Positions 1 through 61,914 of a stretch of DNA of 64,000 nt are shown piece after piece. A program made the translations under genes and the position numbers. Each line of letters opens with the position of its first letter. Positions within the stretch are counted from its first letter, which is position 1. Location of the stretch: positions 1,086-65,085 of IMG/VR virus record IMGVR_UViG_3300031992_000091. One strand, given 5' to 3'. The notes under the pieces are model-generated. The model ran no database searches. It had not been told where the DNA came from and saw only the letters and a program-made list of their open reading frames with translations. The stretch comes from a virus (taxonomy: Duplodnaviria; Caudoviricetes).

Positions 1-2048
1 GGAGGCGCTGTCTTATAGCTAAGAGATCCATCTTCATTAATGATTGGATTTCCTCTTCGCTTGTCCACATAGACAGGGCTCTTTGCCCTAGAGATAAGGG
101 TCGATGCTCCGCCTAGCTCCTTCCCGTTCTCATCTACCCTCCTCTGATAAGAACGTTTTAATTCTGCTATACCATTCTCTTTCTCACTTCTTTTGTAATC
201 AAGATCATGTTTAACAGCATCAATGACCACCATACTATGGCGTACTGCTCTAGCAAGTTCTGAATCAGTAGCACCCCTCAACGTCATGTCTGTAATAAGG
301 TTGGATACAACACCCATCTGCTGCTGCTTGTATCCCTCACTCATTCTCTTATAGTTCTTACCTGCACTACCAGGACTGTCGGGACCGTACTCTGCAGTAG
401 GATCGAATCCCTCGAGACCTTTCAATGGGCTAGTAGATTTAACCTGAGATTTAGGACCAATAGGGATAACCATTACGGTATCACCATCAAAGTCAGCACC
501 AGAAAGTCTTGATGCTACATTAGCATTGATACCGACAGCATCCTTTGCACTAGTACCAATAACCTTTCTGCCTTCCTGGTTCTTATTGTTTACAGTAACA
601 ATGGGGATCTCAAACGTACCGCCATGAGGGTATCTAATGAGAGCTACCTTTTCACCATTCTTATAGTTGGGAGCATAGACTTCATTGTCTTTCATACTCA
701 TCAATGGAAGGATGACCTGATACTTCTGTCTAGGAAGAGCTGCTGCCTGAAGATGCACCGCTGCTGAATCACAGTCTTCTGCAAATGATCTGAGAAGTTC
801 CCTTTTGACAGTCTTGTTTGTAAGACCCATGATGTCATCGAACTCGGCCTTACGATCGCTCATAGTCAGATTGAGCTGCTGATTGATCAGCTTCATGGGC
901 TGCTTACTAAGAAACTGCGAAGGAAGTTTGTCACTGTAATCAGCCCAATCACCTTCTTCAGCACGCTTGTTGATCAATCCAAGTTTCTTATTACCGTGTT
1001 CATCCTCATAGTAATACTGGCCGCCACGTTCCTTAATCAGTGAACCAAATGGATTCTCTCTATCAGGTTTGATCTGCTTAAGAACCTTCTCCATAGGAGT
1101 GCCGGCTTTCTTATTGGTGTTAAATATTACATCGACACCATCAGGCATGTTGTCTCCATAGACAGCCATACCTTTCAGATAGTGTGTTCCGTCAACCATG
1201 ATGCGAACCTGAGCATAGTTGGCTTCACCAAGGTCAAGATCTTTGCAGCCTCTTCGAAGCTCAATGACACCATCTTTCATAGCGCCACCTTCAGGATCGT
1301 CTGCATATCTGATCATAAGTCTTTTAGAATCAAGACTCTCAGGATACTTGAAAGCGGGCTCAATTTTGTTTCCATTATCGACAAGAATCTTGTCAGACTC
1401 TTCAATAGAATGAATATCAAGAGAATAAATGTCCTTGTGTTCTGTGCCAGGAGGGCAAAGAACCTTAAGGACAGTTCTCTTACCAGGATTGGTTACCTGC
1501 TCTACAGATCCGCCATAAACCGGATAGCCTTCGAGCTGCAGCCTGTATAATGCTTCATCAAACTTAACTCTTGATACACCAGCAAACCTTTCCTGACCAG
1601 CACCAACGTCAAGCATACCCTTCTCATCAACGATCTGCTTAAGAAAATCAGCAGTAACCTTAGACTGATTCATTCTTGACTCAGCATTCTCGTTAAGAAG
1701 AGCTCGGACGGACGAGTCATTCTTATAACCCATCTTCCTTGCTATCTCATTAAGAGAGTTGCCTTCTTCTCTGAGGCGTCTTGCTGTTGCTACATTCACA
1801 GATCTACGTTCTTCATTAGCAATTGCTATCTGAACGCGAAACTGTGTGGTAGAAAGATTAAGATTCCTTGCAATATCAGTATCGCTCAATCCTTTACGTC
1901 TGAGATCTTCTACTCTGCTTATGAAATCGCCACTATGCTGGTTAGGGTTCTTACCGCTTCCAAGCGGGTATCTTCCCGATCCTCTGCCAGGAGAGCCGTC
2001 CAACTTACCAACACCGTAATGCATCAAAAAGTCTTCGTTGTGACTCAT
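1..2048 (-). CDS. Single-polypeptide two-barrel (DPBB) RNA polymerase, YonO/cellular-RdRP-like; 3' end lies beyond the window edge
   Basis: Absent from the ORF track because it has no stop in the window. ATG at 2048 overlaps the upstream TGA. Hand translation begins MSHNEDFLMHYGVGKLDGSPGRGSGRYPLGSG. It contains AQVRIMVDGTHYLKG (~1165-1215), LIRYPHGG (RYPH at 624-635) and SRLSGADFDGDT (GADFDGD at 480-500), the Mg-binding DxDGD motif of two-barrel polymerases. Confidence 0.85.
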   Translation of the reverse strand, partial: MSHNEDFLMHYGVGKLDGSPGRGSGRYPLGSGKNPNQHSGDFISRVEDLRRKGLSDTDIARNLNLSTTQFRVQIAIANEERRSVNVATARRLREEGNSLNEIARKMGYKNDSSVRALLNENAESRMNQSKVTADFLKQIVDEKGMLDVGAGQERFAGVSRVKFDEALYRLQLEGYPVYGGSVEQVTNPGKRTVLKVLCPPGTEHKDIYSLDIHSIEESDKILVDNGNKIEPAFKYPESLDSKRLMIRYADDPEGGAMKDGVIELRRGCKDLDLGEANYAQVRIMVDGTHYLKGMAVYGDNMPDGVDVIFNTNKKAGTPMEKVLKQIKPDRENPFGSLIKERGGQYYYEDEHGNKKLGLINKRAEEGDWADYSDKLPSQFLSKQPMKLINQQLNLTMSDRKAEFDDIMGLTNKTVKRELLRSFAEDCDSAAVHLQAAALPRQKYQVILPLMSMKDNEVYAPNYKNGEKVALIRYPHGGTFEIPIVTVNNKNQEGRKVIGTSAKDAVGINANVASRLSGADFDGDTVMVIPIGPKSQVKSTSPLKGLEGFDPTAEYGPDSPGSAGKNYKRMSEGYKQQQMGVVSNLITDMTLRGATDSELARAVRHSMVVIDAVKHDLDYKRSEKENGIAELKRSYQRRVDENGKELGGASTLISRAKSPVYVDKRRGNPIINEDGSLSYKTAP

Positions 2049-2614
2049 TGTTCTTCCTCCCTACGAATATCCATAATTATTCGGTCAAAAGTGATAATCT
2101 TATCCATTACAGGAGCAATGTCCTCCACACCAGGATTGGAAATCAAAATATCATCGGACTGATACAGACGAAGCTCATACTCGATGTCGCCTGGCTTGAA
2201 GTTGTATTCAAGACAAAATAAAGCCGCATAGACGATCAGCTGTTCCATGTGGGCAGGTGTCACACCAGTCTTAAGATCGTGTATGCGGAGAAATCCTTTT
2301 GCATCATTGAACGCAATGGTATCTGCAGTACCGAAACAGTTTGGTGAATAATATAAAATCTGTTCCGGTGTCATCCTGTAGCCGATTGCGTCGTTGACAT
2401 ACATGTTCAACGTTTTTCTCGACTTTGGAAGTTTTTGTCTAAGCTTAATGCACTGAGCAGCGAACGCATGTAACTCTGTTCCCTTCTGAGCCGCAAGAGC
2501 TCTTTTATACGCTTCAGCAACTTTAGCTTCATCATAAAATATCCAGTGATACTTACTGGCTCCAAGAAAGGCGTGTTGCCCGCCTTCAAGATTCGAATGC
2601 CTGTTGAAGTTCAC
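2045..2614 (-). CDS. PD-(D/E)XK nuclease (Cas4/DUF2800-like phage exonuclease)
   Basis: GTELH, FGTADTIAF, IHDLKTG and QLIVYA motifs. Confidence 0.7.
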   Translation of the reverse strand: MNFNRHSNLEGGQHAFLGASKYHWIFYDEAKVAEAYKRALAAQKGTELHAFAAQCIKLRQKLPKSRKTLNMYVNDAIGYRMTPEQILYYSPNCFGTADTIAFNDAKGFLRIHDLKTGVTPAHMEQLIVYAALFCLEYNFKPGDIEYELRLYQSDDILISNPGVEDIAPVMDKIITFDRIIMDIRREEEQ

Positions 2615-2891
2615 TCATAACCTCCTCTCTATTTTCTGGATAGATAAACCTTGAGAATGACATGTCGTTCATTCGGTCAACGTAAATATCTTGGTTTGGT
2701 CGTTTGTTGTTTCGATAATCTCTTTCGCTCTTCTTACATTCCAAGGTAGCCCATTTGTCTCCGTACAATATCAATAGATCCGGAATGCCTTGAATGTGTG
2801 ATGAGTCAAGCTTGGTCACAATAGATCCTGGAAATTGTTGTTCAATATCCTTGATCAATTTTGCTTGAAAGTCACTCTCTCTTCTTCCCAC
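2586..2891 (-). CDS. VRR-NUC domain nuclease
   Basis: ESDFQ...GIPDLLIL...LECKK...Q pattern; GTG start with AGGAG RBS. Confidence 0.8.
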   Translation of the reverse strand: MGRRESDFQAKLIKDIEQQFPGSIVTKLDSSHIQGIPDLLILYGDKWATLECKKSERDYRNNKRPNQDIYVDRMNDMSFSRFIYPENREEVMSELQQAFES

Positions 2892-2969
2892 TCGATACTC
2901 CTTTCTAAATATCCAGAAAAAGAAAAAGGGTTAGGAATTGCTAAAGTCGCAATATATACCTCTTCCCTC

Positions 2970-2995
2970 TCATAAAAGGACCTGAAAATTTTGCG
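2970..2995 (-). promoter_or_regulatory. Phage promoter motif copy P1
   Basis: CGCAAAATTTTCAGGTCCTTTTATGA, identical to the copy at 61889-61914. It lies upstream of the nuclease-nuclease-RNAP operon. Confidence 0.75.
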
Positions 2996-3067
2996 AAGTA
3001 AAAAAGAGCAAAAGAAAAGGCCCTACCGATCTGGTAGAGCCCAAAATGAGTCTGAGAATGGCAATTA

Positions 3068-3427
3068 GTTTTTAGATATCTATTTATTAGCTCTGGCCAA
3101 AAACCCACTTTTTTTTGTAAACTAATATATATTATTATTTTTTTTTATCGCGTATTAACTCTAAATAAAAGTGGGTTTTTGGCCATAAGAGGTTTTTAGA
3201 TATCTAAAAACTAGTAAATCGATATCTAAAAACCCAATTTCGTGGCCATTTTCAAAGTGGGCAAAAGTGGCCATTGGCCACAAAAGTGGGCAGAACAGAG
3301 GGTTTTTAGATATCTATTTACTATTTTCGTTCTTCCGTAAAATTCAATGGTCAAAAAGTTTTGGCCAAAGCCCATTTTTGACCGACAAAAGTGGGCAGAA
3401 AAGAGGGGTTTTTAGATATCGATTTAC
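3068..3427. repeat. Non-coding palindrome/iteron cluster, probable replication origin or RHH-binding region
   Basis: Five GATATC-centred boxes: 3068-3082, the perfect palindrome GTTTTTAGATATCTAAAAAC at 3192-3211, 3214-3235, 3300-3321 and 3406-3427. A 19-bp inverted repeat TGGCCAAAAACCCACTTTT (3094-3112 / 3167-3185) flanks an AT-rich spacer. AAAAGTGGG boxes recur. Confidence 0.7.
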
Positions 3428-3600
3428 TCGTCCAAAAATAACCATAAACGCTCTCTAATGAGCCTCGTAATAGGAATTTTTCTCATCCCGGCAGCCTCTT
3501 TCAGACGTTCGTACTCGCTTTCAGAGACTCGAAAAGGTATCAAATGATCCCTCTTCTCAGAGTCGTTTTTCCTTGGTCTTCCGCCTATGTTTTTCTTCAC
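3424..3600 (-). CDS. Ribbon-helix-helix (CopG/MobC-like) DNA-binding protein, 58 aa
   Basis: Below the ORF-track cutoff. GAGGAGG RBS and GTG start. VKKNIGGRPRKNDSEKRDHLIPFRVSESEYERLKEAAGMRKIPITRLIRERLWLFLDE fits the strand-helix-helix RHH pattern. Confidence 0.65.
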   Translation of the reverse strand: MKKNIGGRPRKNDSEKRDHLIPFRVSESEYERLKEAAGMRKIPITRLIRERLWLFLDE

Positions 3601-3623: not shown

Positions 3624-5291
3624 TCAGAGTTCGAACGTCTTAATATGTCCAGTCTTAGAACCCTTGACCTCCATCTTCTTGCCACGAATATCCATGTAGA
3701 TTTCGCCATCTTTGTAGTTCGTAGCAACAATAGCACCACGATCACGGAAGACGTTGTAAGTAGATTTACGGCCACTTCCATTCTCAGAACCATGGTAGTT
3801 ACAGAAAGCAAGAATACATTTGACAGCATCAACGTAATCCTTTGTGATACCATCACGATCGCCATGCCAACGAATCTTCATAACATGACACATGATCTCC
3901 TCAATACGATCCTTGAAAGCCTCAAGCATCTGTCTCTGAGCTTCAACCTGAGCGTCACCACCCATATCAAATATCCATGTACCGTCCACCACAATGTGAT
4001 AGATCATGGACATGTTGTTAATGAAGTGATGTCCTTCTTTTTCCTTCAGCTTCTTAGCGTCAGCCTGGAAGATAGCCTTACACTCAAAGCATCCGATCTT
4101 GATGACGTCTCCAACACTGACGTAAGAATATCCAACACCATGAGCAAGGCATTTAGCAGCTTGTCTGGCAATTCTGTTAGCATATTCAGGCTGATAACGT
4201 CTAACACCGGTTTGATCAGGGAAGTAGACATGACCGACTTCGAACTCATCAAGGATTGCTTTCTTCTCGTCATTGTTCAAATATCCATAATGATCAGAAT
4301 GATCGTGTGAGATGATAACAGCATCGATCTTCTTAACACCGGCAGCCTTCAGTTTCTTGATTGTATCAGTGTGGTTCATTCCGGTATCGACCAGAATGAC
4401 ATGTTTAATAGTCTTGTTATCAGACTCGTACTGGATAAATGCTGTGGCATCACCGTACTTTTCATGATCGCTTTCCCAGAAACGTATCGCCCATACCCTA
4501 ACATAGGGAGGCAAGTCACCCTCCTTTCCTGGTTCAGACGGGTATTTGGGTCTGATTCTACCTTTGATAGGCTTGAAACTCTTACGATAACGTTTGTGAA
4601 CACCGCCATTGTAGTTGCCTGAGATGAAATAATGACCGCCAAGAGCGAATTCAGAATGATTCGGATTACCTTTTTCGTCCTGATAGATGACAATATCACC
4701 AAATTTCAGATCGTCAGATCCAGATTTCCAAGTTCCTTTCTCATTAGCCTTGTCCATAAGGATTTTAGCGCGCTTTCCATAGCCGATAAGATCCAAATAT
4801 CCAGCCTGATAGAAGATAAGATCCAGAAATGCTGTGCACCAGGAGTCTGTCTTGCTCATTTTGGAGTGATTTGTGCCGTGTTTAGCGTTAAAAACATCAA
4901 TGAAGGCATTATAGTTCTTTATGAAGTCGCTGTGAGCCGTTTCAGAATCGATGTAAGGCTTCATCAGATCATAAACTTTCTCAGCTCCATACTTCTCAGC
5001 AGGCTTTTTGTCATGTTCTCCAGGCACTGTGACCATGATTGCCTTAAGAAAAGTGTTTTTATAAGACTTATATGGGTCTTTTAAGTGCAATCCGGCATTA
5101 TGAATATCTTTCAATCGCTTTTCTGCGTTAGATTTGATAGAAAAAGCACCTGATTGGACCTTCCATAATCCATTTATCTGAATTACAGCAGCAGGAAACT
5201 TTTGTGCTCTCACTACAGCGGCAGTTTTTTCAGCATTTGGCCTGTTTTTATACGCTCCAAGCTGAATTTTATACAGAGTTTTTGTGGCCAT
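3624..5291 (-). CDS. Cell-wall hydrolase: SPOR + CHAP-like amidase + metallo-beta-lactamase-fold (ComEC/Pce-like) domain
   Basis: YKIQLGAYK/WKVQSGAFS SPOR half-repeats; SWCTAF...GDIVIY...HSEF...ISGN CHAP-like Cys/His; LVDTG...IISHDHSDH...GGDA...WHG MBL motifs. Confidence 0.75.
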   Translation of the reverse strand: MATKTLYKIQLGAYKNRPNAEKTAAVVRAQKFPAAVIQINGLWKVQSGAFSIKSNAEKRLKDIHNAGLHLKDPYKSYKNTFLKAIMVTVPGEHDKKPAEKYGAEKVYDLMKPYIDSETAHSDFIKNYNAFIDVFNAKHGTNHSKMSKTDSWCTAFLDLIFYQAGYLDLIGYGKRAKILMDKANEKGTWKSGSDDLKFGDIVIYQDEKGNPNHSEFALGGHYFISGNYNGGVHKRYRKSFKPIKGRIRPKYPSEPGKEGDLPPYVRVWAIRFWESDHEKYGDATAFIQYESDNKTIKHVILVDTGMNHTDTIKKLKAAGVKKIDAVIISHDHSDHYGYLNNDEKKAILDEFEVGHVYFPDQTGVRRYQPEYANRIARQAAKCLAHGVGYSYVSVGDVIKIGCFECKAIFQADAKKLKEKEGHHFINNMSMIYHIVVDGTWIFDMGGDAQVEAQRQMLEAFKDRIEEIMCHVMKIRWHGDRDGITKDYVDAVKCILAFCNYHGSENGSGRKSTYNVFRDRGAIVATNYKDGEIYMDIRGKKMEVKGSKTGHIKTFEL

Positions 5292-9406: not shown

Positions 9407-9432
9407 CCATAAAGGGCTTTGTGAATTCTGCG
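9407..9432 (-). promoter_or_regulatory. Phage promoter motif P2
   Basis: CGCAGAATTCACAAAGCCCTTTATGG. Confidence 0.75.
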
Positions 9433-9887: not shown

Positions 9888-9913
9888 CTATAATAGAAGA
9901 AGTTAGTTTCGCG
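9888..9913 (-). promoter_or_regulatory. Phage promoter motif P3
   Basis: CGCGAAACTAACTTCTTCTATTATAG. Confidence 0.7.
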
Positions 9914-14421: not shown

Positions 14422-14447
14422 CCATAAAGGAGCATGCAAATTTTGCG
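14422..14447 (-). promoter_or_regulatory. Phage promoter motif P4
   Basis: CGCAAAATTTGCATGCTCCTTTATGG, directly after a hairpin plus T-tract. Confidence 0.75.
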
Positions 14448-14850: not shown

Positions 14851-14876
14851 CTATAAGGAGGATTGTTTATTTGGCG
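14851..14876 (-). promoter_or_regulatory. Phage promoter motif P5
   Basis: CGCCAAATAAACAATCCTCCTTATAG, overlapping the helicase stop. Confidence 0.65.
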
Positions 14877-16990: not shown

Positions 16991-17917
16991 TTACTTAGTA
17001 AACGAATCAAGCCACTTCTTCCAACCATACTTGGCATTTCTGAATGACTTCTCATGCGCCGCCATCGGTCCGTGAACAAGGTCCGCCGTACGTCCTCTAC
17101 GTTTGTACATGAAATCCATGCACATTCCAGTGTACGTAACATACAGCACGAACGTGTTCCAAATCAGGTACCATTTGGCAAGTTTCTTGAAAATATTCAT
17201 TTTGTCCTCCTTATTGGTTTCAAAATAGTTGCTACGTTAATAGTTACCTATAAGGAGGTTTGTTAATTTCGCGAAAGCAGAAGACCCATCGTAAATATCA
17301 CGATGAGCCTCCGCTCAGAATTTTACTCTTCTTCGTCTTCCTTTTTCTTCAGGAATGGAATCTTGATTTTGGGCAGCTCGATAAGCCCGATCTTGACATA
17401 GAGCCAGATACAATAAATTGTGGTAATAATACTGCATACCCCACACATCTTGAAATATCTTCTCCATGTTACCGGTGTGTCAAGCCATTTCTTAATCATT
17501 TTGTTTCCTCCTTATAAAAGTTGATTTGAATTGTTACTTCTATAATGGAGGATGTAAATTATGCGAAAAAGCAAAAGCCTCTGCAAATATCATTTCGATA
17601 CTTACAGAGGCCAGTGCTAATTATTTGTCGCTAATCTTTTTTGCTACGAATTTGTACTGTTTCAGTTCATCAGACCATTGGTCTTTAACAATATACTCAA
17701 AATGCTTCTCACCATGATACCTGGTCTCTCTATCGATGGCGTCTAAGACTTTCCACTTGCCTCGATCTTCTCCTTCGGCATATGCTTCTTTACGAATCTT
17801 TTCTCTTTCAGCATCCTCATGAGCAGACAAGGCAATGATCGCCATGACGGCACAAAAGCCACCAGCAGCATAAGTTACAACGTTTTTGAGTAATCCAAAT
17901 CCAGTTCCGTTTGTCAT
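16991..17917 (-). CDS. Three single-gene cassettes encoding small single-pass membrane proteins (16991-17200, 17323-17499, 17621-17917)
   Basis: Each has its own promoter motif, AAGGAGG RBS, one hydrophobic segment and a downstream hairpin terminator. Confidence 0.7.
17248..17273 (-). promoter_or_regulatory. Phage promoter motif P6
   Basis: CGCGAAATTAACAAACCTCCTTATAG. Confidence 0.75.
17540..17565 (-). promoter_or_regulatory. Phage promoter motif P7
   Basis: CGCATAATTTACATCCTCCATTATAG. Confidence 0.75.
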
Positions 17918-17958: not shown

Positions 17959-17984
17959 TCATAAAGGCCGTTGTTAATGTTGCG
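17959..17984 (-). promoter_or_regulatory. Phage promoter motif P8
   Basis: CGCAACATTAACAACGGCCTTTATGA. Confidence 0.75.
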
Positions 17985-18817: not shown

Positions 18818-18843
18818 CTATAAAGGAAGTTGCTAATTACGCG
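18818..18843 (-). promoter_or_regulatory. Phage promoter motif P9
   Basis: CGCGTAATTAGCAACTTCCTTTATAG, overlapping the polymerase stop. Confidence 0.7.
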
Positions 18844-22894: not shown

Positions 22895-24033
22895 TTACTC
22901 CAGTTCATTTAGGTATTGCTGCATCTGATACCAGATTTCTTCCTCAAGCATGTTTTTAGTTGGATCGTGCGTAACAAACAGTCCACCAGTACCATCTGGC
23001 TCATACTCTCTGTAGTTGAGTCGATCTATGATCTCTATAATATCAGCGTAATGCTCGTCAAACTTCGAATTGGTCATAGGTTTTAAACCTAGATTATCGA
23101 ACATGACCCAAAACCACTTACTCTGACGATCGCCTTTGTCGGGATCATACATAATATGGTCTTCCATCCTGACCGCTAAGGCGACCATCATTTCAAACAC
23201 ACTGCAAGGTCTGTTGTCAAGCAGGTCCTGAATTGTGTATGAGTCTACACCTTGCTCACGTCCGTATCTGTATCTCAGTTCAATACCGTCTTCAGATCGA
23301 TTACCGTCCTTTGGTATAACAAATATAAAGTCTTGTTCATGCAGAAGAGTCAAGGTCTTTTTATAGACCTTAACCTTTCCGCCATGATCAATCAGTTTGC
23401 ATAACCACTTGAAGTAATCTTTCGAAATATCATTCATTAGTCCTCCACTGTGAAGTGCGGACGTGTCTCGTCAAATGATTCGAAAGTCTGAACGTCTTTG
23501 TAGATAGCATAATCAGTGCATCGTTCGTCGTTTCGAATGAATAGTTCATCAGATCCTTCGTCAAATAACTTTTCAAACCCCTCTCCGAGTAGCTCGTCCG
23601 CATTCTCTATAACGTCATCACGATCATCCGCAAGGACACCGTCAGCGAACAATGTGAGTTCAATAGCACTATAATCTTCGAACTCACTAAACTGATCTGG
23701 CAGAATCTTATACGGCCTGTCGTGTTCAACAACATCGTCTCCACCATAGATGGCAGTCACGGTAGCGTACTCGTTAAGAAGGTCTTTTACGTGTTCCCTC
23801 TTCTCAGGATCTTCTACAGACTTCAGAATTTCATCGTTAGTCCGTCTGATCAATTTCTCGCGATCGTCTTCAACCACCTCTGGCTCATCATTCGTCTCAT
23901 CAGGCTCAGAAGCTGCTTCAGCCTCTTCCTTTTTCTCTGAAATATCATAATTCTTTTTAACATAAGTGATCCCCGCAACAGCACCAAAAACTGCTCCTGC
24001 AACAAATGTCACCAAATATAACGCTTTTTTCAT
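22895..24033 (-). CDS. Two hypothetical genes (22895-23437; 23437-24033, N-terminal TM helix and acidic body)
   Basis: ORF track; abutting and co-oriented. Confidence 0.65.
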
Positions 24034-25019: not shown

Positions 25020-25628
25020 TCAATCGAGTGCTTCTGCTCTAGGCAGTTTGATCAAATATCCGTCTCTGTCACGAACCACTGAGGCGCTTCTCAGATCGGT
25101 CCAGCCATAACGGTTGTCTGTTGTCTTCCCGGTGATGCCAACCAGATCATAGAAATCAGCGACACTGACCATCTTGTAATCTTGCAGAAGTTCATCCATT
25201 CTTGCAAGAACTTCATCTGCTTCTTCTCGGCTATCGAGTATTACATCGTCATAGTCGTACGATCTCTGTCGTCTGTCAGACTCTCTTGAGCCTACACCAG
25301 GTCGATCATAATAACTCCTGTAAGATACGCGCTCTGCGTTACCTCTGGGTCGGCGTCCACCGTTTTTACCCCAGAGGAACATGTCCAGAGCGTTCGTTAC
25401 CATATCAGAGAATGTCTTCTTTACTGCAGGAACAAGAACGTCGTTCCAAATATAATTTTTAACGGTGCCAGCATCCTCCTGGATGAAGGCGTCCATGAAT
25501 TTTCTAAAACCAGATTTCTTCTTGGACTTTACTGAGCCTTTAGTAATCCGCTCGACCTTCTTTCCAGAAGATTTCTTTTCCTCTGTATCTTTTTTGGCGC
25601 TGTCAGATTTATTTCTGTAATCTTCCAA
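25020..25628 (-). CDS. Hypothetical protein with a C-terminal VSVADFYDLVG...GW domain
   Basis: C-terminal motif shared with neighbouring paralogs. Confidence 0.6.
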   Translation of the reverse strand: MEDYRNKSDSAKKDTEEKKSSGKKVERITKGSVKSKKKSGFRKFMDAFIQEDAGTVKNYIWNDVLVPAVKKTFSDMVTNALDMFLWGKNGGRRPRGNAERVSYRSYYDRPGVGSRESDRRQRSYDYDDVILDSREEADEVLARMDELLQDYKMVSVADFYDLVGITGKTTDNRYGWTDLRSASVVRDRDGYLIKLPRAEALD

Positions 25629-26353: not shown

Positions 26354-26379
26354 CTATAATATCCGTTGTTAATTGTGCG
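26354..26379 (-). promoter_or_regulatory. Phage promoter motif P10
   Basis: CGCACAATTAACAACGGATATTATAG. Confidence 0.75.
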
Positions 26380-27432: not shown

Positions 27433-27472
27433 AGTTACTCCTTTCTGAAAAATATAAGTGAATGCAAAAAAA

Positions 27473-27547
27473 GAAAGACCTAGTAGGATTCGAACCTACT
27501 TTCTCTACCATTGCTGGTAGCGTCCACCCCTTGGACCGAAGTCTTTC
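27473..27547 (-). ncRNA. tRNA-like RNA (75 nt) lacking an anticodon loop
   Basis: Acceptor-like GAAAGAC/GTCTTTC; D-arm GTCC-AAGGGGT-GGAC; CTACCA-GCAA-TGGTAG; T-arm GTAGG-TTCGAAT-CCTAC. Starts at promoter P11 and ends at a T7 tract. Confidence 0.7.
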
Positions 27548-27572
27548 CATAATAGTCGTTGTAAATTTTGCG
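27547..27572 (-). promoter_or_regulatory. Phage promoter motif P11
   Basis: CGCAAAATTTACAACGACTATTATGG. Confidence 0.8.
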
Positions 27573-29471: not shown

Positions 29472-29496
29472 CACAATACCGTTTGTAAATTTTGCG
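29471..29496 (-). promoter_or_regulatory. Phage promoter motif P12
   Basis: CGCAAAATTTACAAACGGTATTGTGG (TTGT variant). Confidence 0.7.
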
Positions 29497-30614: not shown

Positions 30615-30640
30615 CTATAATGCCGTATGTAAATTCTGCG
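30615..30640 (-). promoter_or_regulatory. Phage promoter motif P13
   Basis: CGCAGAATTTACATACGGCATTATAG. Confidence 0.8.
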
Positions 30641-30937: not shown

Positions 30938-30963
30938 CCATAATGGTGAATGTAAATCGTGCG
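30938..30963 (-). promoter_or_regulatory. Phage promoter motif P14
   Basis: CGCACGATTTACATTCACCATTATGG. Confidence 0.75.
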
Positions 30964-31009: not shown

Positions 31010-32828
31010 TCACATCAGATCTTTTACGATCCTTTCAAGTTCTTCCTTAGACATCTTTACAGTCATATCGAGATGGAGCGTTACTCCTTCTTCAGAGTCC
31101 TCGATTGCAAGATCGTTGATACCCAAGTCAGCTTTGATACCAGCCTTCTTGGTAACACCGAATGCAATCGCCTTTGATAAAAGGGTCTTCATCCATCCTG
31201 TATTCAATAAAAATCTCATAATTATCCTCCTTTTATTGGAAAATTTATTAGAAAATAGATGTTTCTTCTTCATAATATGACCTGTAATTTTCGCGCTCTA
31301 AATGGGGCAATGATCAAAGCAAGTTTCCCAGGGTTTTCGTTTAAGCGGTTTCATCTTCAATGCCCACATAATCTGTCTGATAGTTACCGTTGGATAGCAT
31401 CCGTTTTTGCAAGGTCCTGCCATCTTTTTGAAGTATTCGAGGAATCCGGGATGTAAATATAAGTCGTTTCTTAAATTGTCGTCTATGGCATTCCACCAAG
31501 TTGATTTCCTATCTTCTCTGTATCTCTGCTGTATTACCGCCAGACCTAAATCACCAATCTTATACAGCGTGCAGGCGTAATACACAGGATGGTCACAAAT
31601 ATAAGTCTCACCATACATCGGGACAGAGATGTCAGGTTTCTCATAGTGGTATCTCATATATACTCCTTTGCGAAAAACAAAAAGCCCTGCAAATATCGCT
31701 TAGATACTTACAGGGCCGGTTGTCGAGTTACCAGAAGCTTAATACTTATTAAAGTCTATAAACTTCTGGACACCTCTGATGAGATTTTTCGCCGTACCAG
31801 AAGCGATCACGCCTCCACTTTCAAGCACCGCCGACCACTTGCCGACAATTACAAAGGTTCCGATCTTGACTGCGTTGGTTGCAACGTCGGCCAAGAGTTT
31901 CGTTTTAAATTCTTTGTGTTGCTGTGCCATCTGCTGCTTACGGAGTTCGTTATCTGCCTGACGCTTCTCGATTTCCTCGATCCGTCTTTGATAGGCGTCC
32001 TCGTACTCGTCATCAGCTTTGGCCTGCTCCATTCTGATTCGATACATCTTGGTCATGTTGTCCACGCATTCAGCGTACTCCTTCGAGTCTTTCGGAAGAG
32101 TGTCCAAATGCTCGAGCGAAGCCGCTACAGCTTTGTCGTACAGCGCTCTGATCTCCTCATTCGCATTTTCCATAAGTTACTCCTTTCATAAATATAAAGA
32201 TTTTCGGTTACTCATAATGGAGCTTGCACATTTCGCGTTTTGACACGAAACATGACCTCAGAATTCTTTGCCAGTTCCTCGGGGGTTAACTCTGTATCAA
32301 GAAACAAATATGCTTCTCCGTCCTGCGTATAGATCAGAATAGTTCCTGCTGTATCAATTGATTTGACCGAATGCACAGTTTCTTCGTATCCTATGTGCAA
32401 CCACACTCCGACCAAAACGCCCACAAGAGCAACAAAAATAAAACACAATGTATCAATTACCATCCATAAATACCTCCTTAAAATGAATTTCTGATTTTCC
32501 CATCCGGAAATTTTTTGGATTCGAAAAAGAAAAACAGCCTTGCAGATATTGTTTTCAAATATCATACAAAGCTGTTCGTCTTTCAGAATACAACCGCTTC
32601 CCTAACGGGGAGCAGGGTCAATGCTTCCATGGTTCTACGGTCGCCGTAAATCATCGGTGTCCATCGACCAGTGATCGTGTACTCGTATTCGCCAGTGTAA
32701 ACTACCTGGTCGGCTACTAATCCAAGCCTTCCAAGAGCAACACCCATGTCATGAGCATAGTCCTGATCAACGACAACCTTAAAGTTTTTAGGTTTCCGTT
32801 TAAACCATTTTAATCCTTTTATTCCCAT
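31010..32828 (-). CDS. Five cassette genes (31010-31219, 31298-31657, 31739-32173, 32212-32463, 32583-32828), all hypothetical
   Basis: Each has an AGGAG RBS; most have a promoter motif upstream and a hairpin terminator downstream. Confidence 0.7.
31270..31295 (-). promoter_or_regulatory. Phage promoter motif P15
   Basis: CGCGAAAATTACAGGTCATATTATGA. Confidence 0.75.
32212..32237 (-). promoter_or_regulatory. Phage promoter motif P16
   Basis: CGCGAAATGTGCAAGCTCCATTATGA. Confidence 0.7.
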
Positions 32829-32859: not shown

Positions 32860-32887
32860 CTATAATAGAGGATGTAAATTTGGTGCG
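32860..32887 (-). promoter_or_regulatory. Phage promoter motif P17 (+2 nt spacer variant)
   Basis: CGCACCAAATTTACATCCTCTATTATAG. Confidence 0.65.
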
Positions 32888-32935: not shown

Positions 32936-33017
32936 GAAAAGGTCAACGGAATCGAACCGTCCACTAGTAAACTAGTCGCGCCCTCATTTTAACAATGCTC
33001 CATACGCTTTCCTTCTC
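32936..33017 (-). ncRNA. Second tRNA-like RNA (~82 nt)
   Basis: Closing stem GAGAAGG/CCTTTTC, T-arm GACGG-TTCGATT-CCGTT, and two further arms (ACTAG-TTTA-CTAGT; GCGT..CATT-GTTAA-AATG..GCGC). Lies downstream of promoter variant P18. Confidence 0.55.
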
Positions 33018-33041
33018 ACATAAGCAGCTGTAAAATGCGCG
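33017..33041 (-). promoter_or_regulatory. Phage promoter motif P18 (short-spacer variant)
   Basis: CGCGCATTTTACAGCTGCTTATGTG. Confidence 0.55.
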
Positions 33042-33268: not shown

Positions 33269-33294
33269 TCATAATAGAGTGTGTAAATTTCGCG
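33269..33294 (-). promoter_or_regulatory. Phage promoter motif P19
   Basis: CGCGAAATTTACACACTCTATTATGA. Confidence 0.8.
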
Positions 33295-33307: not shown

Positions 33308-33399
33308 AAGAAGGCCTGATGGGAGGGTCTCACTCCATCAGGAAGGTAGTGTCTTTCAACATACTACTATTCCTACAAGCCTCACTTACTTCCTTCTTC
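33308..33399 (-). ncRNA. ~92-nt structured RNA
   Basis: Closing AAGAAGG/CCTTCTT; GTAG..TGTT-GAAA-GACA-CTAC; CCTGATGG..TGAGACC..CCATCAGG. Starts at promoter P20 and ends in a long T-tract; no ORF. Confidence 0.5.
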
Positions 33400-33423
33400 A
33401 TAATACTCTTTGTAAATTTAGCG
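33398..33423 (-). promoter_or_regulatory. Phage promoter motif P20
   Basis: CGCTAAATTTACAAAGAGTATTATGA. Confidence 0.75.
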
Positions 33424-33919: not shown

Positions 33920-34100
33920 AATTTTCTACACAATTTTTACACAAATATAAGTCTGAAATAGGCTCAAATCACGACCTGAGACCCGCATAAAACCTTACTC
34001 GGACACCTCAGCGTATTACAATGCCTAATTTCATTTCAGTCTATTCTCCTTTAAATATAAGTCTCTCGGATAACTCTACACAGATTTTACACAAGATTCG
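33920..34100. other. Probable attP
   Basis: Tandem TACACA arm-type repeats on both sides (33924-33946 and 34076-34097). They flank a minus-strand RBS + ATGAAATTAGGCATTGTA (MKLGIV, 34017-34034). The site is directly downstream of the integrase. Confidence 0.6.
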
Positions 34101-35236
34101 AACAACTCAACCCCCGCACGCAGGCTCTCGTCCGTGACGTGTACGTACCTGTCCATGGTAGTCTTAATGCTGGCGTGACCCAGGAGCTTCTGTAAGGTCT
34201 TTGGCGGCATACCTCGCTCGATTGCTCTGGTAGCATATGTGTGTCTGAGAGCGTGCATACAGAACCTCTTAATCCCAGCCTCGTCGCAAAGCTTATACAG
34301 ATGCGTGTCATACGAACTGTTCTTTGCAGGCATACCAGTACGCCAGTTCACAAATATAAGTTCTTTCATGTTAAACGACTTGAGTGTGCCTGAGCGCCGA
34401 TCGAGATAGCTCAACGTCTGATCCAGCTTTGGTGATTCTTTCCGTTCTGAATCTCTAACCTCTTGCAAAATATCATACGCCATGGACGTGAGTGGTATAG
34501 TCCTGTAGCTTGACTGAGTCTTTGTCGGACCAGCTCTCCAGACACCGGAAGAATATCGGTATTCCAGAGTCTTGGTAATCGAGAGTGTGTGCTTCTCCCA
34601 GTCTACACAGTCCCAGGTAAGTCCGATAAGCTCGCCTGTACGGAGTCCTGTCTCAAGAATCAGAGTGTACTGTCTGTAGTTGTGTGATCTCTTTGCTGCT
34701 TCAAGAAATCTGGTCTGTTCTTCGATTGTGAGGAAGTGAATATCATCCGGAGACTTCCTCGGTTTGTTTACTTTGATACCTGTGAGAGGATGCTTGTCGA
34801 TCAGATCGTTGTTCAGAGCGGCTTTGAATAGAGTACCCATGGTAATGTAGGTCTGAACGATTGAGCTGGTTGCGTACTGCGGTTCCATCTGATTCAGAAC
34901 CTGCTTGCAGTGCATCGGCTTGAGTTCAGCCAGGTAAATATCACCGATGTACGGACCTACGTTGTAGTGGTAACGCTCTGCGTAGTTTCGTCTGGTATTA
35001 GGAGCCAGGTCGCTGATCAGATTGGTCATCCAGTATTGATACCATTGGTCAACAGTCATTCCTCGTTTTGACTTCGGTTTCTTGTCGAGCTCTTTTAACC
35101 ATGCCTTAGCCTCTTTAACAGTCTTGAAGTAAGAGCCGAAACTCTGTCCGTGCTGTGTGCATCTGGCAAAATATAACCCGTCTTTCCTCTGACAGACACC
35201 TTTTCCAAGTTCCTTTCCTTTTAAATCTTTTCCCAA
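34076..35236 (-). CDS. int: Tyrosine integrase
   Basis: [27 protein letters not shown]. Start reassigned to the TTG after AAGGAGG ([13 protein letters not shown]...). Confidence 0.95.
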
Positions 35237-35269
35237 CGGACACCTCCTTGATAGAGTCCGCCCCGAGCC

Positions 35270-35278
35270 AGTATAGCA
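35270..35278 (-). promoter_or_regulatory. Extended -10 host sigma-A promoter candidate for the integrase
   Basis: TGCTATACT immediately after the terminator at ~35290-35335. Confidence 0.4.
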
Positions 35279-35360
35279 CGGCGGGCGAAAAAATAAAAGG
35301 GACAGTAAACCTTGCGGCAAACCATCCCTTTCATATGACTCTACCACTATACATGAGTAT

Positions 35361-38107
35361 TTAGGTGGTTGGGTCTGGCGTATGAATATAACACCCGTTT
35401 TTAATCGGGTTGCACTGGCTGCTGAACAGTATTGCACCATGCTCAGCGTATGTAGATACTGCTGCACGGCTCATGACCTCATGATACTTGGACTCCCCTT
35501 TAAGACGGGCTTTCTCTTCGACCTCGTCGTAAAGCCAGAATACATCGTGTTCCAACTCGCCAGCAGCAGATTTCCGAACTTCCGTTACGTAGTATTGGTA
35601 CATGTGTTACTCCTTATGCGGTCTGCCTAATCGTTAATTGTGGTGCATAGACGTAATAACCAGACCGGCTTCTTCCATATACAGCCACTGTTGCATTTGC
35701 AGGAATCGCTACACCTGTGAGGTGATTATTCTGAACATGGTTTGTCCACGTTGTATTCTCACTTCCATATGCAGCGCCATTGATGTAAAGCTGAGACCCC
35801 CACGTTTGTGATGTGTTTGACCTTGCACAACTCCAGTAAACGTCATAAATTCCTGCTGTCTCACAAGTTAGCGAAGTGATTGAACCTAATGCCGTATTAT
35901 TCCGTCTTGTAGTCCCTTGTGCGACCTGTGTGTTCATTGACGCACCTGCGGGGGTGGGGACATTGACCGTTACACTGCTATATCCATCAGCGGAATCATC
36001 GGATGCGGAATACGTGCCGTTTGCTGTGATGGATTTGGTTATTAGTGTTGCGGACCCGCCACCACTTGAAGTTTGTTTTTCCAGTTTTAGCGTATGCGTT
36101 CCAGACGTTCTTGCTACTCCGTTTAGTGCCCCGCCACCATAGTTATACAAGCAGAAAGGCTCCCCTGTGCCATCATCCGTTCCGTCAGTAAGACCATGGT
36201 TGCCGATATACCACAACCATCCTTCGTGTATATTTGGGTAGCATGTATATTCTGTTCCGTCCCACGTTACTCGCCACGTTTCACCAGCAACAAAGTAAAG
36301 GCTTGATAATGACGGAATAGAAATCGTTTTGTCAGATGCTGCGGTTATGGAACCATCATAGTATGTTTCATAAGTTGCTCCGCCACCTGAAATCTGTGCT
36401 ATCAGGTCTGCCAAATCATCGCTGTTTGCTCCTGACGGGACAGACACTCCTTTTGCTCCGATTGCAGTTAATGCGGCTGATACATTATCACGTATTCTTA
36501 TAACCTGGCGTCCGGTTGGAGTGCTGTTTAAATATTCTTCTGTGCTTTCATAAGCAGGCAAAATATCACCTCCTTAAATCGCGGCAAGTGCAATCTCGAT
36601 GTCGTTGGTCAGGCTGACTGTTCCTCCGCTTGTGTGTCCTGCGGGAATACTGTATGAGGTAGTTGTCATACCGTCAATCGTGCCAGAAATCGCTCCATTT
36701 TCGGGCATAGAGCCTTCGATCTTGACTGCCGCTCCGTTGCTATTGGAATGTGCAGATGTTCCTGCAAGCAGATTCGCCGCTACTGCATCGTCCCCGGTAG
36801 TATCACCGTAATGTGCGGGAATAGCAGCGACCGTGACTTTACTCAGGACTTTACCTGCTGTGGGAGTGATATCCTGAGAGGATGCGGACGGAGTTGCGGT
36901 CTTTGTCTCCAGTACGATATTTACTGTACCAGAACCGTTGTGCTTACCTTCGGGGACGGTGTAACTCTGATTGTCTGTGGTAGCATCGAGGGTTTTGCTG
37001 ACCGACCCAACGTTTGGCATTGTACCAGGAACTACATTGCCCTCCGCGTCAACTATGATCTTATTGGCGAGTACATCTCCCGCCCCTGCATTGACAGACG
37101 ATACGTCCTGATATGCGTCAGGGATGGGAGCTACGGTTACGGCAGACAGACCGTAGTAGCCAGAATCGGGAGCGATGGATTGCTGTGATTTTGTGGGCGT
37201 TGCTGTCTTACTCTGCAGTGTGTAGTTACCGCCTCCAGACACGCCGGAAACCGTACCGGTACCGTCATGCAGTCCTGCGGGGATCGTGTATGTGTCACCT
37301 TCCTGTACAGTCGCAGTTACTCCGCCGCGGTTTACAATACCGTCAAAAGCATCCGCAAGAGCGGGAAGTTTGTCGGTGGATGTTCCGATACCGAGCTCTA
37401 CAGCTTTTGTGCGGAGTTTGTTTCGTGCCGTCTGTATTCTGGTAATTTCTGTTGCAATACTCATGCTTTTTCTCCTATATAGTCTGAAGTAATGCGGCAA
37501 TATTTCCAATTTCTGTATATACTGCTGCCGCGGAAATCGGGCGCGTATTGTCCTGTTCTACTGCATTGGCTTTTGCCACTGACAGCACGCCAGACTGCGT
37601 TATTTGCAAATCTTCTCCAACGATGATCCCACCGAGCGAAATTGTGGTAGCAGGACGCAGAACCGTCCCGCCCACAACTACCGTCTGCCCAAGTGCTCCA
37701 CTTGCTGTGATATCACCGGACAGGCTTGCTTTGGCAGTTATGTTGCCTGATAAATAGCCTTTTGCGGTAATGTCTTTAGCCATTTACATCACCTCATTTT
37801 TCTCCGTGTTTTCTACCCTGATTTTGTCGGGAATGCCATAAACTTTGTAGCGTTCGCCGTTTGCTACCACATGCATATCGAGTGAGAGCACCTCTCCTGC
37901 GGTAAAGGCAAGGGTCTCTTCTTGTGTCCAGTGATAGGCAAGCGTGTCTCCGCTGATAATCATGTCAGACAGTCCGAGTTCGATTTTCTCTGTTCTGCGC
38001 TTGATAATGAGCGAGACTGCGGAAATATCTGCTACAGAAAAATCGGCAATATCGGAGAAATCGACAATCAGTGACGGAGTCGTGCCTCTTACAATTACAT
38101 CTGCCAT
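35361..38107 (-). CDS. Accessory tail-fibre/adhesin-like gene cluster (35361-35603, 35614-36561, 36574-37464, 37475-37783, 37784-38107)
   Basis: G/T/S-rich beta-repeat proteins: three Y.IPAG.H.G.GTV-type repeats, [20 protein letters not shown]. The 37784 product is BppU-N-like. Confidence 0.55.
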
Positions 38108-44995: not shown

Positions 44996-47900
44996 GCCCT
45001 CCCTTCTATCTTAGCGGCACGAATAAGCGATCTGACAGCAGACGATACATTACTGCCATCATCGTATGTTACGCCGTTTACATTATAAACATTACCTGTG
45101 TTGCCAATGAGAGCCGACAAGCCATTAATAGCATTAATCAGTGCGCTCATTGTATCATTCTCAGACTGTTCTTTACGACGCTGATCGGCTGTTACGCTTC
45201 GATTAGTATTATCGGCGAGAGTAATATTACCGTTGAACGATAACCGGTCCATATCAGACATCATAGAATACAGTTTTCTAGTGTCATTTTGAATTTCTGA
45301 CAGATCCATTGTAGGAGTTATTGTTGGATCAGTAACAATGTCTCCACTAAGCAAATCTGCAAGCGTGTCAAGGGGTTTCTTAGCAGCAAGCATTACTCGC
45401 TCGGCCATTACTCTAGATCTAGAAGCAGCTTTTCTAGCGTTGTTATCGATACCAATCAAAAGGCCGTTATCAATGTCCTCGCCGATCTTAATAAAGACCT
45501 TAGAAGGCGAATTCGAATCAAGTTTTTTCTTAGCTGCATCAATAGCACCTTTTACAAGACTCTTCGCTTTTTCAGCAATCTGCGACGCTTTAGACATAAT
45601 ACCTTTGGCTAGTCCAGATGCCATATCTTTACCAACTTGTTTCCACTCACCGACCTTATTTTTAATCGCCTGAAGAGCCTTCTTTGCGAGTTTACCGGCT
45701 TCGCTCGCGATCTTTCCGGCAAGACTAATAAGACCCATTATAAGTTTTGAAATAAGCTCCTTACCCATGGAAAGCCATTTAGGAAGATTCTTCTGAATAG
45801 CGGAAATACCTTTAGACAGAAGTTCTAACACTTTTCCAGGAATTTTAGGAGCAATAGCAGCTATACCAGCAACAAGTTTGAGAATGAGATCCTTACCTGC
45901 GGAAAGCCATTTGGGTAAGTTCTTTTGTATCCACTTAACAGCATTACTAATAAATTCGCCAACTTTCTTTACAATGTTGGGACCGTTCTTTGCAATTCCG
46001 GAAACAGCTGCCTTAATGAGTCCACCAGCTTTCTCCATAAATACCGGAGCATTTTGGACGATATACTGAATAGCTTTAGAAATGGCGTCACCGATCAAAC
46101 TAAGAATTTGACCAGCACTATTAATAATGGATGAAATAGCGTTAACAATAGCGTTACCGATCTGACCGGAAATTGCTATAAATTTCTCAATAGCAGATAC
46201 CAGCAAATATAAGCCGGCACCGATCATTAGCATTGCCCCAGCAAAAGCCATTAAAGGAACGATCAATGCTGGGAATATAGCCAGAATAGCAACAAAACCT
46301 ACAACAATACCAATAAACACTATTAATACAGTGCTCAGTGTCGCGAGTCCTGCAGCAAGGCCAGCAAATTGTTCCTCACTTTTTATTGCCGTAAACATTA
46401 ATAATGCCTGGGTAAATATAAGAAGTGCGGTAGATACCTTAATAAACGCATCACCAATAAACGAAGCGGCAATGCCAAACACCATAAACGCTGCACTGAC
46501 GATTAATATATCTGGCGAGATGGCACTCAGCAGTTTGAACGCAATAACCATAGTTGCGACAATAACCACAAGTCCACCAAGACCTTTGCCCAAGTCACCT
46601 ACAGTCATTTTGCCAAGAACTGTTACAACATAAGACAGAACACCGATAACTGCTACAAAAGCCATCAAAGCTGGGATAGCAGTATTCATCAGTATAAGCT
46701 GACCCATAATTGCGGAAAGTTCTCTAAGCGCTATGACCAGTCCAGCTGTTATTAGCCCTATAGCACCAAGACCTTTTGCCAAAGTTCCGAGATCAATAGA
46801 TCCTATTTTGACAACTGCAAACGCCAGTATTAGAATGGCGCCAACAAGAGCAAGCGGTGCAACAATATCGATAACGCCAAAGTTGGTATTACCAATAAGC
46901 TTAAGCGAAGCATCGATAATTACTGCCAAAGCGGTAATAACGCCAAGTCCTTTGGCTATTACGCTTATAGGCAATACACCAATACTTAATACACTGAAGC
47001 ATAATGCTTGAATAGAGGCCATAAATGCAATAATAGCCACTACCTTGGTCGGATCCATTGACGAGTTTCCAATTAAAAACAGACTTGCTGTCAAAACTGC
47101 GCCAAGAGCCAGCACAACACCAAGACCCTTTAACAATACCGCTTTAGGAATAACGCCTAATGCAAGTACAACCATAGCCAGTTCGTTAATGGCTAGTACA
47201 AATGCTATTATTCCAAATATAGCTGATATGGATATGCTAGTTCTTGTAAGTAGTGTCATAGCTGCAATAATTAATGCTGCCATGGCACCTACCACCAAAG
47301 TACCTTTTAGCAAGTTTCCAAGAGGAACCAAGCCGATTAATGCTGCGGTTATTGACAATGTGACGATGGCTAACACAACCGGTATTAATCCAACTATTGC
47401 TGATTTGTTGATCTTTGCAAATCTGATAAACATCAGAGTAGCGACAAGTACGGAAGCAACCGCTCCGACCACAACGATACCTTTAAGAATATTCTTCAAA
47501 GGCGCTAATCCAACCAAAGCAACAGTAACTGCCAGTATAGATATTGCAAAGGCAGTTGCTATCATATGAGCAATAACCGAAGGGTTTATCACCGTAGCGT
47601 ACTTACTAACAATTATGACAACTGCAGATAATATTGCTGCGATAAAGCCGACTGCAACAATACCTTTAGCCAATGTGCCAGCGTCTAGTTTTCCAAGTCT
47701 CGCAACGGTATAACCGAGAATGAATATTGACGCTGCGGAAACAACCATCCCCTTAAGAATAGAACTATCCAGAGACGCGTCTTTCGTGGCCATAGTAAGC
47801 AATTTCATTGTTCCAACCAGTATTGCTGCAATAAAACCAACTGCAACAATACCTTTGGCTAATGTGCCAAGATCCAGTTTGCCTAACTTAGCAACTGTTC

Positions 47901-61823: not shown

Positions 61824-61888
61824 GTTTTCTCCAAATAAAAAAAAAAAAGAAGAGAAAGCAGCAATCGCCACTTTATACTCTCTCCCTT

Positions 61889-61914
61889 TCATAAAAGGAC
61901 CTGAAAATTTTGCG
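61889..61914 (-). promoter_or_regulatory. Phage promoter motif P21 (identical to P1)
   Basis: CGCAAAATTTTCAGGTCCTTTTATGA. Confidence 0.75.

Follow-up and report, generated by a model that had tools for sequence, protein, structure and literature searches.

The subject of this work is a phage genome from IMG/VR (record IMGVR_UViG_3300031992_000091, 65,085 bp, rated complete by CheckV), of which record bases 1086-65085 were analysed as one stretch of 64,000 nt, called the window in the following. An RNA polymerase (RNAP) gene lies at the left edge of this window, and a 25-nt asymmetric motif precedes most genes of the phage. The best overall explanation is probably that the encoded protein is a promoter-specific, DNA-dependent phage transcriptase with the 25-nt motif as its promoter. 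The parts of this explanation differ in strength. Judged from its structural model, the protein is almost certainly a two-barrel polymerase with an intact active site. By analogy with characterized phage enzymes, it very likely transcribes phage DNA, and the sequence evidence argues with good probability for the motif as the polymerase's own promoter. The gene adds a member to a family (PHROG 4291 / phage 1706 ORF75) that had been catalogued and predicted to be an RNAP before, and the link of the polymerase to a conserved candidate promoter with a predicted start site may be new.

A predicted two-barrel polymerase with DNA-binding modules

The polymerase frame comprises 682 codons in the window, on the minus strand from an ATG at position 2048 to position 3 as the last in-window base, and is open at the window edge. 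Owing to this orientation, the in-window piece is the N-terminal part and the piece outside the C-terminus. In the full record, no in-frame stop follows shortly past the edge; the frame stays open for 225 more codons and closes at 907 amino acids (aa), a length in agreement with the 909 positions of the family profile phrog_4291. The initial annotation had described the frame as missed by the track of open reading frames (ORFs), which holds only in the sense that it runs off the window. The motifs GADFDGD, RYPH and AQVRI-x7-LKG that it had read from the frame were found exactly where they had been placed (Table 1).

The in-window part matched PHROG 4291, labelled 'RNA-dependent RNA polymerase', with an E value of 4.7e-281 over profile positions 6-679 of 909. 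Homologues with 47-55% identity over the whole length were found by tblastn in 250 isolated phages of Arthrobacter, Gordonia, Streptomyces, Lactococcus, Curtobacterium, Rhodococcus, Microbacterium and Faecalibacterium, and their annotations vary between RNA-dependent RNA polymerase (RdRP), putative RNA polymerase, helix-turn-helix (HTH) DNA-binding protein and hypothetical protein. An exhaustive HMMER search returned 906 clusters at 50% identity (E <= 1e-30). The family is very large, with members in phages from the gut, dairy and soil, hundreds of SEA-PHAGES isolates among them. Ruprich-Robert and Thuriaux (2010) distinguished five YonO-like families that are distantly related, among them the phage 1706 protein (PMC2919709), the product of ORF75 at the right genome end. 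In the protein of FP_oengus and actinophages, Koert et al. noted flanking HTH domains, DxDGD and, by HHpred, a link to Pfam RdRP. They took the protein to be possibly an RNA polymerase and its gene to be a signature of a supercluster composed of Actinobacteria and Firmicutes phages (bioRxiv 10.1101/842583). Both papers report the catalytic motifs of the family and mention no promoter (PMC2919709, bioRxiv 10.1101/842583), and Koert et al. mention no DNA motif either.

Conservation was assessed in an alignment of 89 relatives with 45-57% identity to the query. Q280, R282, K292, G293, D306, K324, R472, P474, D519, D521 and D523 are invariant in 89/89 relatives, and since the catalytic residues are kept throughout this set, the polymerase motifs are not due to chance. 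In the two-barrel superfamily, the beta-like barrel has invariant basic and acidic residues, the equivalents of Rpb2 K979, K987 and D837 (PMC2919709). Here, K292, K324 and D306 of this barrel, as candidate counterparts, are fully and D259 and D270 nearly invariant.

An AlphaFold2 model built on this alignment reached a mean predicted local distance difference test score (pLDDT) of 88.5 and a predicted template modelling score (pTM) of 0.82. In a Foldseek search against the PDB, the best matches were QDE-1 (E 1.7e-9), plant RDR2, the Thermus phage proteins P32 gp64 and P74 gp62 (E ~2e-5) and P23-45 gp96; after the phage RNAPs came the largest subunits of cellular RNAPs. VIA-align gave Z scores of 15.6 for RDR2 (360 residues, root-mean-square deviation 4.7), 15.3 for QDE-1, 11.5 for P32 gp64 and 10.4 for Pol II Rpb1. 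All VIA-align matches fall on model residues 235-748, where the beta-like barrel comes first and the beta'-like barrel with DFDGD second. As the model matches QDE-1, RDR2, phage RNAPs and Rpb1 over this core, the two-barrel fold proposed initially is supported, with the set of DxDGD, RxPH and QxR..KG intact. A sequence search of PDB chains with the in-window part returned nothing relevant.

Outside the core, the model contains two N-terminal HTH modules (aa 42-143), a small domain of the alpha/beta kind and, behind the core, long helices and a C-terminal HTH (aa 869-907). This last HTH is of the sigma-region-4/LuxR/resolvase type; its scores for HTH_38, HTH_7 and GerE exceeded the Pfam cut-offs, and that for Sigma70_r4_2 fell just short. 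The HTH modules at both ends that Koert et al. (10.1101/842583) described for the family are present in the 907-aa protein. The N-terminal ~40 residues are disordered in the model, yet contain the invariant residues H10, G12, S24, G25, R26, G30 and G32.

A strand-specific motif tied to the polymerase

By repeat search and scanning, a 25-nt asymmetric element of the form CGCAAAATTTACA-N5-TATTATG was found in the window; its general form across phages is CGCAnnnTTTACA-N5-TATnATG, followed by purines. A weight matrix gave 25 matches on the coding strand of the window and 0 on the other. The copies usually lie behind a hairpin or T-run and 13-60 nt before a Shine-Dalgarno sequence (SD) and start codon. 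The boxes TTTACA and TATnAT are 5 nt apart, and no -35 element is found at 16-18 nt; because the two hexamer-like boxes are this close, the spacing is not that of sigma-70. Sites of sigma-70 type occurred at chance level both around the polymerase operon (11 vs 10.2 +/- 3.1 expected) and in the early region (22 vs 20.5 +/- 5.3 expected), and a Sigma70_r2 search of the whole phage record gave no match.

The same motif recurs in other phages. Faecalibacterium phage FP_oengus has it as CGCGAAAAATaCAGnnTCCTTTATG in 14 coding-strand copies, and Streptomyces phage Bilo, with 60.6% GC, as CGCAcGTTTTaCatGGCTTATAATG then AGACCCCTAC (6 copies vs 0). In Lactococcus phage 1706, it reads CACAAGTTTTACA-N5-TATAGTA (6 copies at 9 bits, with 2 on the other strand; 4 vs 0 at 11 bits), and in Arthrobacter phage CapnMurica, which was left out of the training of the motif matrix, CGCAagAATTACA-N5-TATAATG (11 vs 0). 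Across 80 IMG/VR loci with relatives 48-99% identical, 205 matches fell on the polymerase strand and 18 on the other. Among the 67 of these loci with enough upstream sequence, 66 have a motif site 0.3-2 kb before the polymerase gene, ahead of the nuclease-polymerase operon. The SPbeta control (50 kb) had one match per strand. In the reverse test, an exact-pattern scan of IMG/VR for CGCRNNNTTTACANNNNNTATWATG found more than 107 stretches. Among the first 50 contigs selected in this way, with no criterion but the motif, 29 carry the polymerase gene, including each of the 15 with a completeness of at least 90%; the 21 contigs lacking it are fragments, 13-82% complete. The association of motif and polymerase shown by these counts is tight, strand-specific and cross-phylum, from Actinomycetota to Bacillota phages. 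The genome-wide non-sigma-70 motif noted at the outset is real, and it is tightly tied to phages with the polymerase gene.

A further one-sided repeat is the octamer T[TG]ATATTT (e.g., at 2153, 9392, 13883, 25636 and 41399), with 80 copies on the coding strand of the window vs 0 on the other. The copies are concentrated almost entirely between 2 and 41 kb, the structural module having few; many are intragenic, and some sit between SD and ATG. FP_oengus has 40 vs 0 and the 80 IMG/VR relatives 642 vs 116, whereas the octamer is lacking in 1706 (5 vs 20) and Bilo (0 vs 0). It is lineage-restricted.

Predicted transcription start at the motif edge

From +1 to +7 after the motif, 81-97% of the bases are purines, compared to a background of 56% (188 distinct sites). 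Structured RNAs begin at the same place. Besides the tRNA-like cloverleaf of the window (Table 1), FP_oengus has a structured RNA at 2935-3006, directly after the motif at 2910-2934, and CapnMurica has two, at 23302-23385 and 23396-23480, in all cases with a closing stem that opens on the base adjoining the motif. Only 19 nt separate the motif end from the ATG in phage 1706. Since the purine run, the stems of the structured RNAs and this short distance all point there, transcription is predicted to start at the 3' edge of the motif. A sigma-70 -10 hexamer places +1 about 6-7 nt further downstream, and this geometry does not fit, because the +1 would then fall inside the closing stems. ARAGORN called the FP_oengus RNA a tRNA with an odd anticodon loop and found no tRNA in the window, CapnMurica or phage 1706; as only the former is called, the post-motif RNAs are tRNA-like at most. 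By analogy and not by homology, the layout would correspond to a promoter of the T7/SP6 type, in which a specificity region is combined with an A+T-rich box next to +1 and a start rich in purines.

Proposed role of the polymerase

A DNA template is suggested by the precedents of YonO and P23-45 (PMC5467207, PMC10770324), and by the three DNA-binding modules of the protein. In the proposed mechanism, the HTH modules would read the upstream half (CGCAnnnTTTACA) of the asymmetric promoter, the A+T-rich TATnAT box would be melted, and RNA synthesis would begin from or next to the last motif base, into the purine-rich initial region. With its own operon behind a copy of the motif, expression of the polymerase would be self-reinforcing through feedback.

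The first enzyme molecules might, speculatively, come from the virion, with the N-terminal tag as a loading label. The DUF7211 tag, D-E-L-Y-H-H-G-I-K-G-x-[RK]-W-G-V-R-R, opens three head-module ORFs with 38.5, 29.2 and 19.8 bits, and the polymerase partly matches it with 17.1 bits (E 4e-4). It also occurs in 1706 ORF7 (annotated as structural), in Bilo gp6 (twice) and in an FP_oengus ORF between terminase and portal; a literature search of partial coverage for DUF7211 found nothing. A capsid-loading label is a possible function of the tag; delivery of the polymerase in the virion appears rather doubtful. The most far-reaching version of the mechanism combines a self-sufficient single-chain RNAP, fused HTH modules as a built-in sigma, and a T7-like 25-nt promoter kept near-unchanged across Actinomycetota and Bacillota phages, with a short N-terminal DUF7211-like tag, shared with head-module proteins, by which the enzyme would be packaged into capsids, injected and able to fire early promoters. 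As a whole, this combination is improbable.

The value of the system would lie in candidate DNA-reading domains within the same chain as the polymerase, together with a precise candidate promoter and a predicted start site. If true, this would provide a new orthogonal transcription system for Gram-positive hosts and would correct the widespread labels 'RNA-dependent RNA polymerase' and 'HTH DNA-binding protein'.

Opposing evidence and alternative explanations

Several points weigh against a promoter-specific phage transcriptase. The link between motif and polymerase is at the same time a link with a whole phage lineage that shares many genes, and the motif might be recognised by a different conserved factor. 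The downstream box departs little from a perfect sigma-A -10 hexamer (in actinophages, it reads TATAAT), and its use by host RNAP with a phage activator has a small but real probability. A motif read by the polymerase alone poses a bootstrapping problem for the polymerase's own operon, and the sole hint at a solution is the weak N-terminal tag. In RefSeq, phage 1706 ORF75 has no structural-protein label, though other 1706 ORFs have one. When compared with the PDB, the family profile gave HTH matches only, plus a non-significant match (E ~0.9) to beta' of a multisubunit phage RNAP, and Pfam RdRP (PF05183) reached 14.6 bits over aa 508-619, below its cut-off of 23.8. A literature search of partial coverage found no promoter or biochemical study of the PHROG 4291 family, and an earlier description is possible.

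The alternative that survives best accepts the two-barrel RNAP and assigns the motif to the host RNAP. Sigma-A would use the TATAAT-like box as -10, and a phage activator or sigma-appropriating factor would act on the upstream half, as with MotA/AsiA of T4; we consider this unlikely. Equally unlikely is the other job that the phage polymerase would then have, either late-gene transcription by read-through across genome ends or the making of primers. The sigma-70 -10 consensus of the box in Bilo and CapnMurica fits such a host-driven promoter, as does the missing virion-protein annotation of 1706 ORF75, and the operon position behind the motif in 66/67 relatives is easy to understand if host RNAP fires first. 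YonO, moreover, transcribes late genes only (PMC5467207). However, host RNAP would have to work without a -35 element at 16-18 nt, with TTTACA only 5 nt from TATnAT, and on an identical 25-nt layout in phages of Actinomycetota and Bacillota. The structured RNAs start directly after the motif, where a -10 hexamer would put +1 some 6-7 nt further and inside the stem, and the purine run begins at the motif edge. Furthermore, no second family-wide motif was seen as a possible promoter for the polymerase, the T[TG]ATATTT octamer being lineage-restricted.

Very improbable is an RdRP, as the RefSeq and PHROGs labels have it, or a DNA-binding regulator that has lost polymerisation. The best structural matches are cellular RdRPs, QDE-1 and RDR2, and databases list the protein as 'RNA-dependent RNA polymerase' or 'helix-turn-helix DNA binding domain protein', but these labels stem from weak Pfam RdRP similarity. 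YonO matches the same Pfam family and yet is DNA-dependent (PMC5467207), QDE-1 also takes DNA templates (PMC9508822), and three HTH DNA-binding modules point to double-stranded DNA. A dead enzyme is at odds with every catalytic residue being invariant over 89 divergent relatives.

Scarcely credible is a non-promoter role of the motif, as one-way binding sites for a repressor or regulator comparable to the stoperators known from Cluster A mycobacteriophages, with the polymerase link explained by shared ancestry: stoperators are likewise asymmetric, numerous, intergenic and in one orientation relative to transcription (PMC13313380), and the window phage has an integrase, but this reading was ranked low because the motif is conserved across phyla, whereas the stoperator consensus differs between related phage clusters (PMC13313380), and because its copies follow terminator-like hairpins or T-runs and closely precede ribosome sites, with tRNA-like RNAs and a purine-rich start directly behind them; the motif is also kept in Bilo, a record without an annotated integrase, and the stretches of 1706 and CapnMurica examined list none.

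Genome context

Nearly all genes of the window lie on the minus strand. The genome contains terminase, portal, a protease-capsid fusion, tail genes, a helicase and two lysin genes, as well as genes for a 1351-aa primase-polymerase and a tyrosine integrase (34076-35467). The tape measure protein (2386 aa, 44992-52152, minus strand) includes an endolysin-like stretch at ~aa 456-553 and no polymerase motif, and a search of the window for a second DxDGD polymerase, such as the tape-measure fusion of P23-45, found none. The initial annotation had spoken of a temperate siphovirus. This is reasonable in view of the tape measure and the integrase, and because relatives with 66% identity sit on Lachnospiraceae bacterial contigs of >400 kb and IMG/VR marks some of the relatives there as proviruses.

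The order endonuclease, exonuclease, polymerase, small ORF and genome end is kept in Bilo and CapnMurica; its core is kept in FP_oengus, a record in prophage order, and phage 1706 has it with some insertions. The small ORF (phrog_4303) is clearly conserved in all five phages, namely the window phage, 1706 (orf76), Bilo (gp58), CapnMurica (gp88) and FP_oengus, and from this conservation its product is a candidate polymerase partner. In many IMG/VR relatives, the contig ends 300-450 nt past the polymerase gene, which places the gene at a physical genome end. After end joining, transcription from the operon could read through into the head genes.

Between the lysis genes and the polymerase-operon promoter, four 23-nt repeats centred on GATATC lie at 3066-3428, ~106-124 nt apart, and could be a regulatory or replication element. 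The small ORFs among them (3424-3600 and 2941-3108) have no PHROG match.

Table 1. Features of the polymerase gene, its operon and the motif copies; positions refer to the window unless marked as record positions.
Feature	Position	Strand	Basis and remarks
RNA polymerase gene, codons 1-682 of 907	1..2048	-	PHROG 4291, E 4.7e-281; whole gene = record 410-3133, last 225 codons + stop left of window
Predicted two-barrel catalytic core, in-window part aa 235-682 (whole core aa 235-748)	3..1346	-	VIA-align, Foldseek
GADFDGD, metal-binding loop, residues 517-523	480..500	-	D519, D521, D523 invariant; sole DxDGD in window
RYPH, RxP(H) motif of second (beta'-like) barrel, residues 472-475	624..635	-	R472, P474 invariant
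AQVRI-x7-LKG (AQVRIMVDGTHYLKG), basic motif of first (beta-like) barrel, residues 279-293	1170..1214	-	Q280, R282, K292, G293 invariant
N-terminal helix-turn-helix pair, aa 42-143	1620..1925	-	HTH profile matches, modelled helices
N-terminal tag, aa 5-32 (DFLMHYGVGK...SGRYPLGSG)	1953..2036	-	Predicted disordered; has family-invariant residues; partial DUF7211 match, 17.1 bits, E 4e-4 (six-frame genome search)
75-aa small ORF directly after polymerase gene, phrog_4303	record 146-373 (left of window)	-	Place kept in relatives
Cas4-type exonuclease, directly upstream of polymerase, same operon	2045..2614	-	phrog_3953, E 9e-79; synteny kept in relatives
Endonuclease, first gene of polymerase operon	2586..2891	-	phrog_93
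Motif copy CGCAAAATTTTCAGGTCCTTTTATG, before endonuclease-exonuclease-RNAP operon	2971..2995	-	Repeat search, scan
Terminator-like hairpin and T-run just upstream of operon motif copy	3018..3042 (record 4103-4127)	-	Lies before motif copy 2971..2995
Motif copy	9408..9432	-	Scan
Motif copy	9889..9913	-	Scan
Motif copy	14423..14447	-	Scan
Motif copy	14852..14876	-	Scan
Motif copy	17249..17273	-	Scan
Motif copy	17541..17565	-	Scan
Motif copy	17960..17984	-	Scan
Motif copy before DNA polymerase/primase gene	18819..18843	-	Repeat search, scan
Weaker motif copy, inside gene	25307..25331	-	Scan, 18.9 bits
Motif copy	26355..26379	-	Scan
tRNA-like cloverleaf RNA, closing stem from first base after motif 27548..27572	27470..27547	-	Fold z -4.59, 0/200 shuffles as stable; GGUUCGAAUCC loop
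Motif copy, exact consensus match	27548..27572	-	Scan
Motif copy	29472..29496	-	Scan
Motif copy	30616..30640	-	Scan
Motif copy	30939..30963	-	Scan
Motif copy	31271..31295	-	Scan
Motif copy	32213..32237	-	Scan
Motif copy	32861..32885	-	Scan
Weaker motif copy	33017..33041	-	Scan, 16.6 bits
Motif copy	33270..33294	-	Scan
Motif copy	33399..33423	-	Scan
DUF7211-tagged head-module ORFs flanking terminase (ELYHHGIKGxRWGVRR...)	58450-59325, 61095-61826, 61921-62712	-	Tag match
Motif copy identical to that at 2971..2995, before head/terminase module	61890..61914	-	Repeat search, scan

Comparison with known polymerases

To our knowledge, single-chain two-barrel phage RNAPs are few, and only YonO, gp66 of a crAss-like phage and the P23-45 enzymes have been studied. 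Nearest to the window protein are phage 1706 ORF75 and the homologues annotated as 'putative RNA polymerase' in FP_oengus and as 'HTH DNA-binding domain protein' in actinophages. They belong to the same family, with 47-55% identity and HTH modules at both ends in common, and occupy the same genome place, behind a Cas4-type exonuclease and ahead of a conserved small ORF, close to the end of the genome. The promoter-like motif of 1706, FP_oengus, Bilo and CapnMurica is also that of the window phage. The differences concern host and lifestyle only, as the window phage has an integrase and probably infects gut Clostridia.

YonO of the Bacillus prophage SPbeta, with which the polymerase had been compared initially, is likewise a single-chain two-barrel RNAP of a temperate Firmicute phage, with a beta-like barrel followed by a beta'-like barrel with RxPH and DxDGD. 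Experimentally, it is a DNA-dependent RNAP that transcribes late genes (PMC5467207). Significant sequence similarity to YonO was not found. With hhalign, the family profile gave no match to YonO alone and a non-significant one to a 34-member YonO profile (E 0.017, probability 2.7%, 83 columns), in which only LIRYPH...ADFDGD is paired with LRSPH...FDNDGD. In addition, YonO has no HTH modules and its relatives end in four invariant cysteines (C799, C802, C816 and C819), whereas the window phage polymerase closes with an HTH and its last 400 residues are free of cysteine. Membership in the YonO family was rejected on the grounds of the non-significant profile similarity; the C-terminal four-cysteine cluster is missing as well. 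In the alignment of YonO relatives, these four cysteines look like a zinc ribbon. We know of no defined YonO promoter.

QDE-1 and RDR2 are the best structural matches, with 360-379 residues aligned and QxR...KG and DxDGD in common. They differ by their low identity of 11-16%, other flanking domains, the lack of HTH modules and their action in eukaryotic RNA silencing. The non-virion RNAP of Thermus phages (P23-45 gp64; solved for P32 gp64 and P74 gp62) is also a single-chain two-barrel enzyme with its own promoter motif (PMC10770324), and 367 residues could be aligned. In contrast to the window protein, the P23-45-type RNAP is ~590 aa long, has no HTH extensions and uses a different, GC-rich promoter. 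P23-45 has a second, tape-measure-fused virion RNAP, whereas one DxDGD only was found in the window; gp64 and gp96 of P23-45 each have their own promoters (PMC10770324).

The RNAPs of the T7/SP6 type are alike by analogy only, in that they also use an asymmetric promoter of ~23-25 nt, which has a specificity region and an A+T-rich box bordering +1, and from which the initial transcript is rich in purines. Their right-hand fold is unrelated, and they read the promoter with a specificity loop and not with HTH domains.

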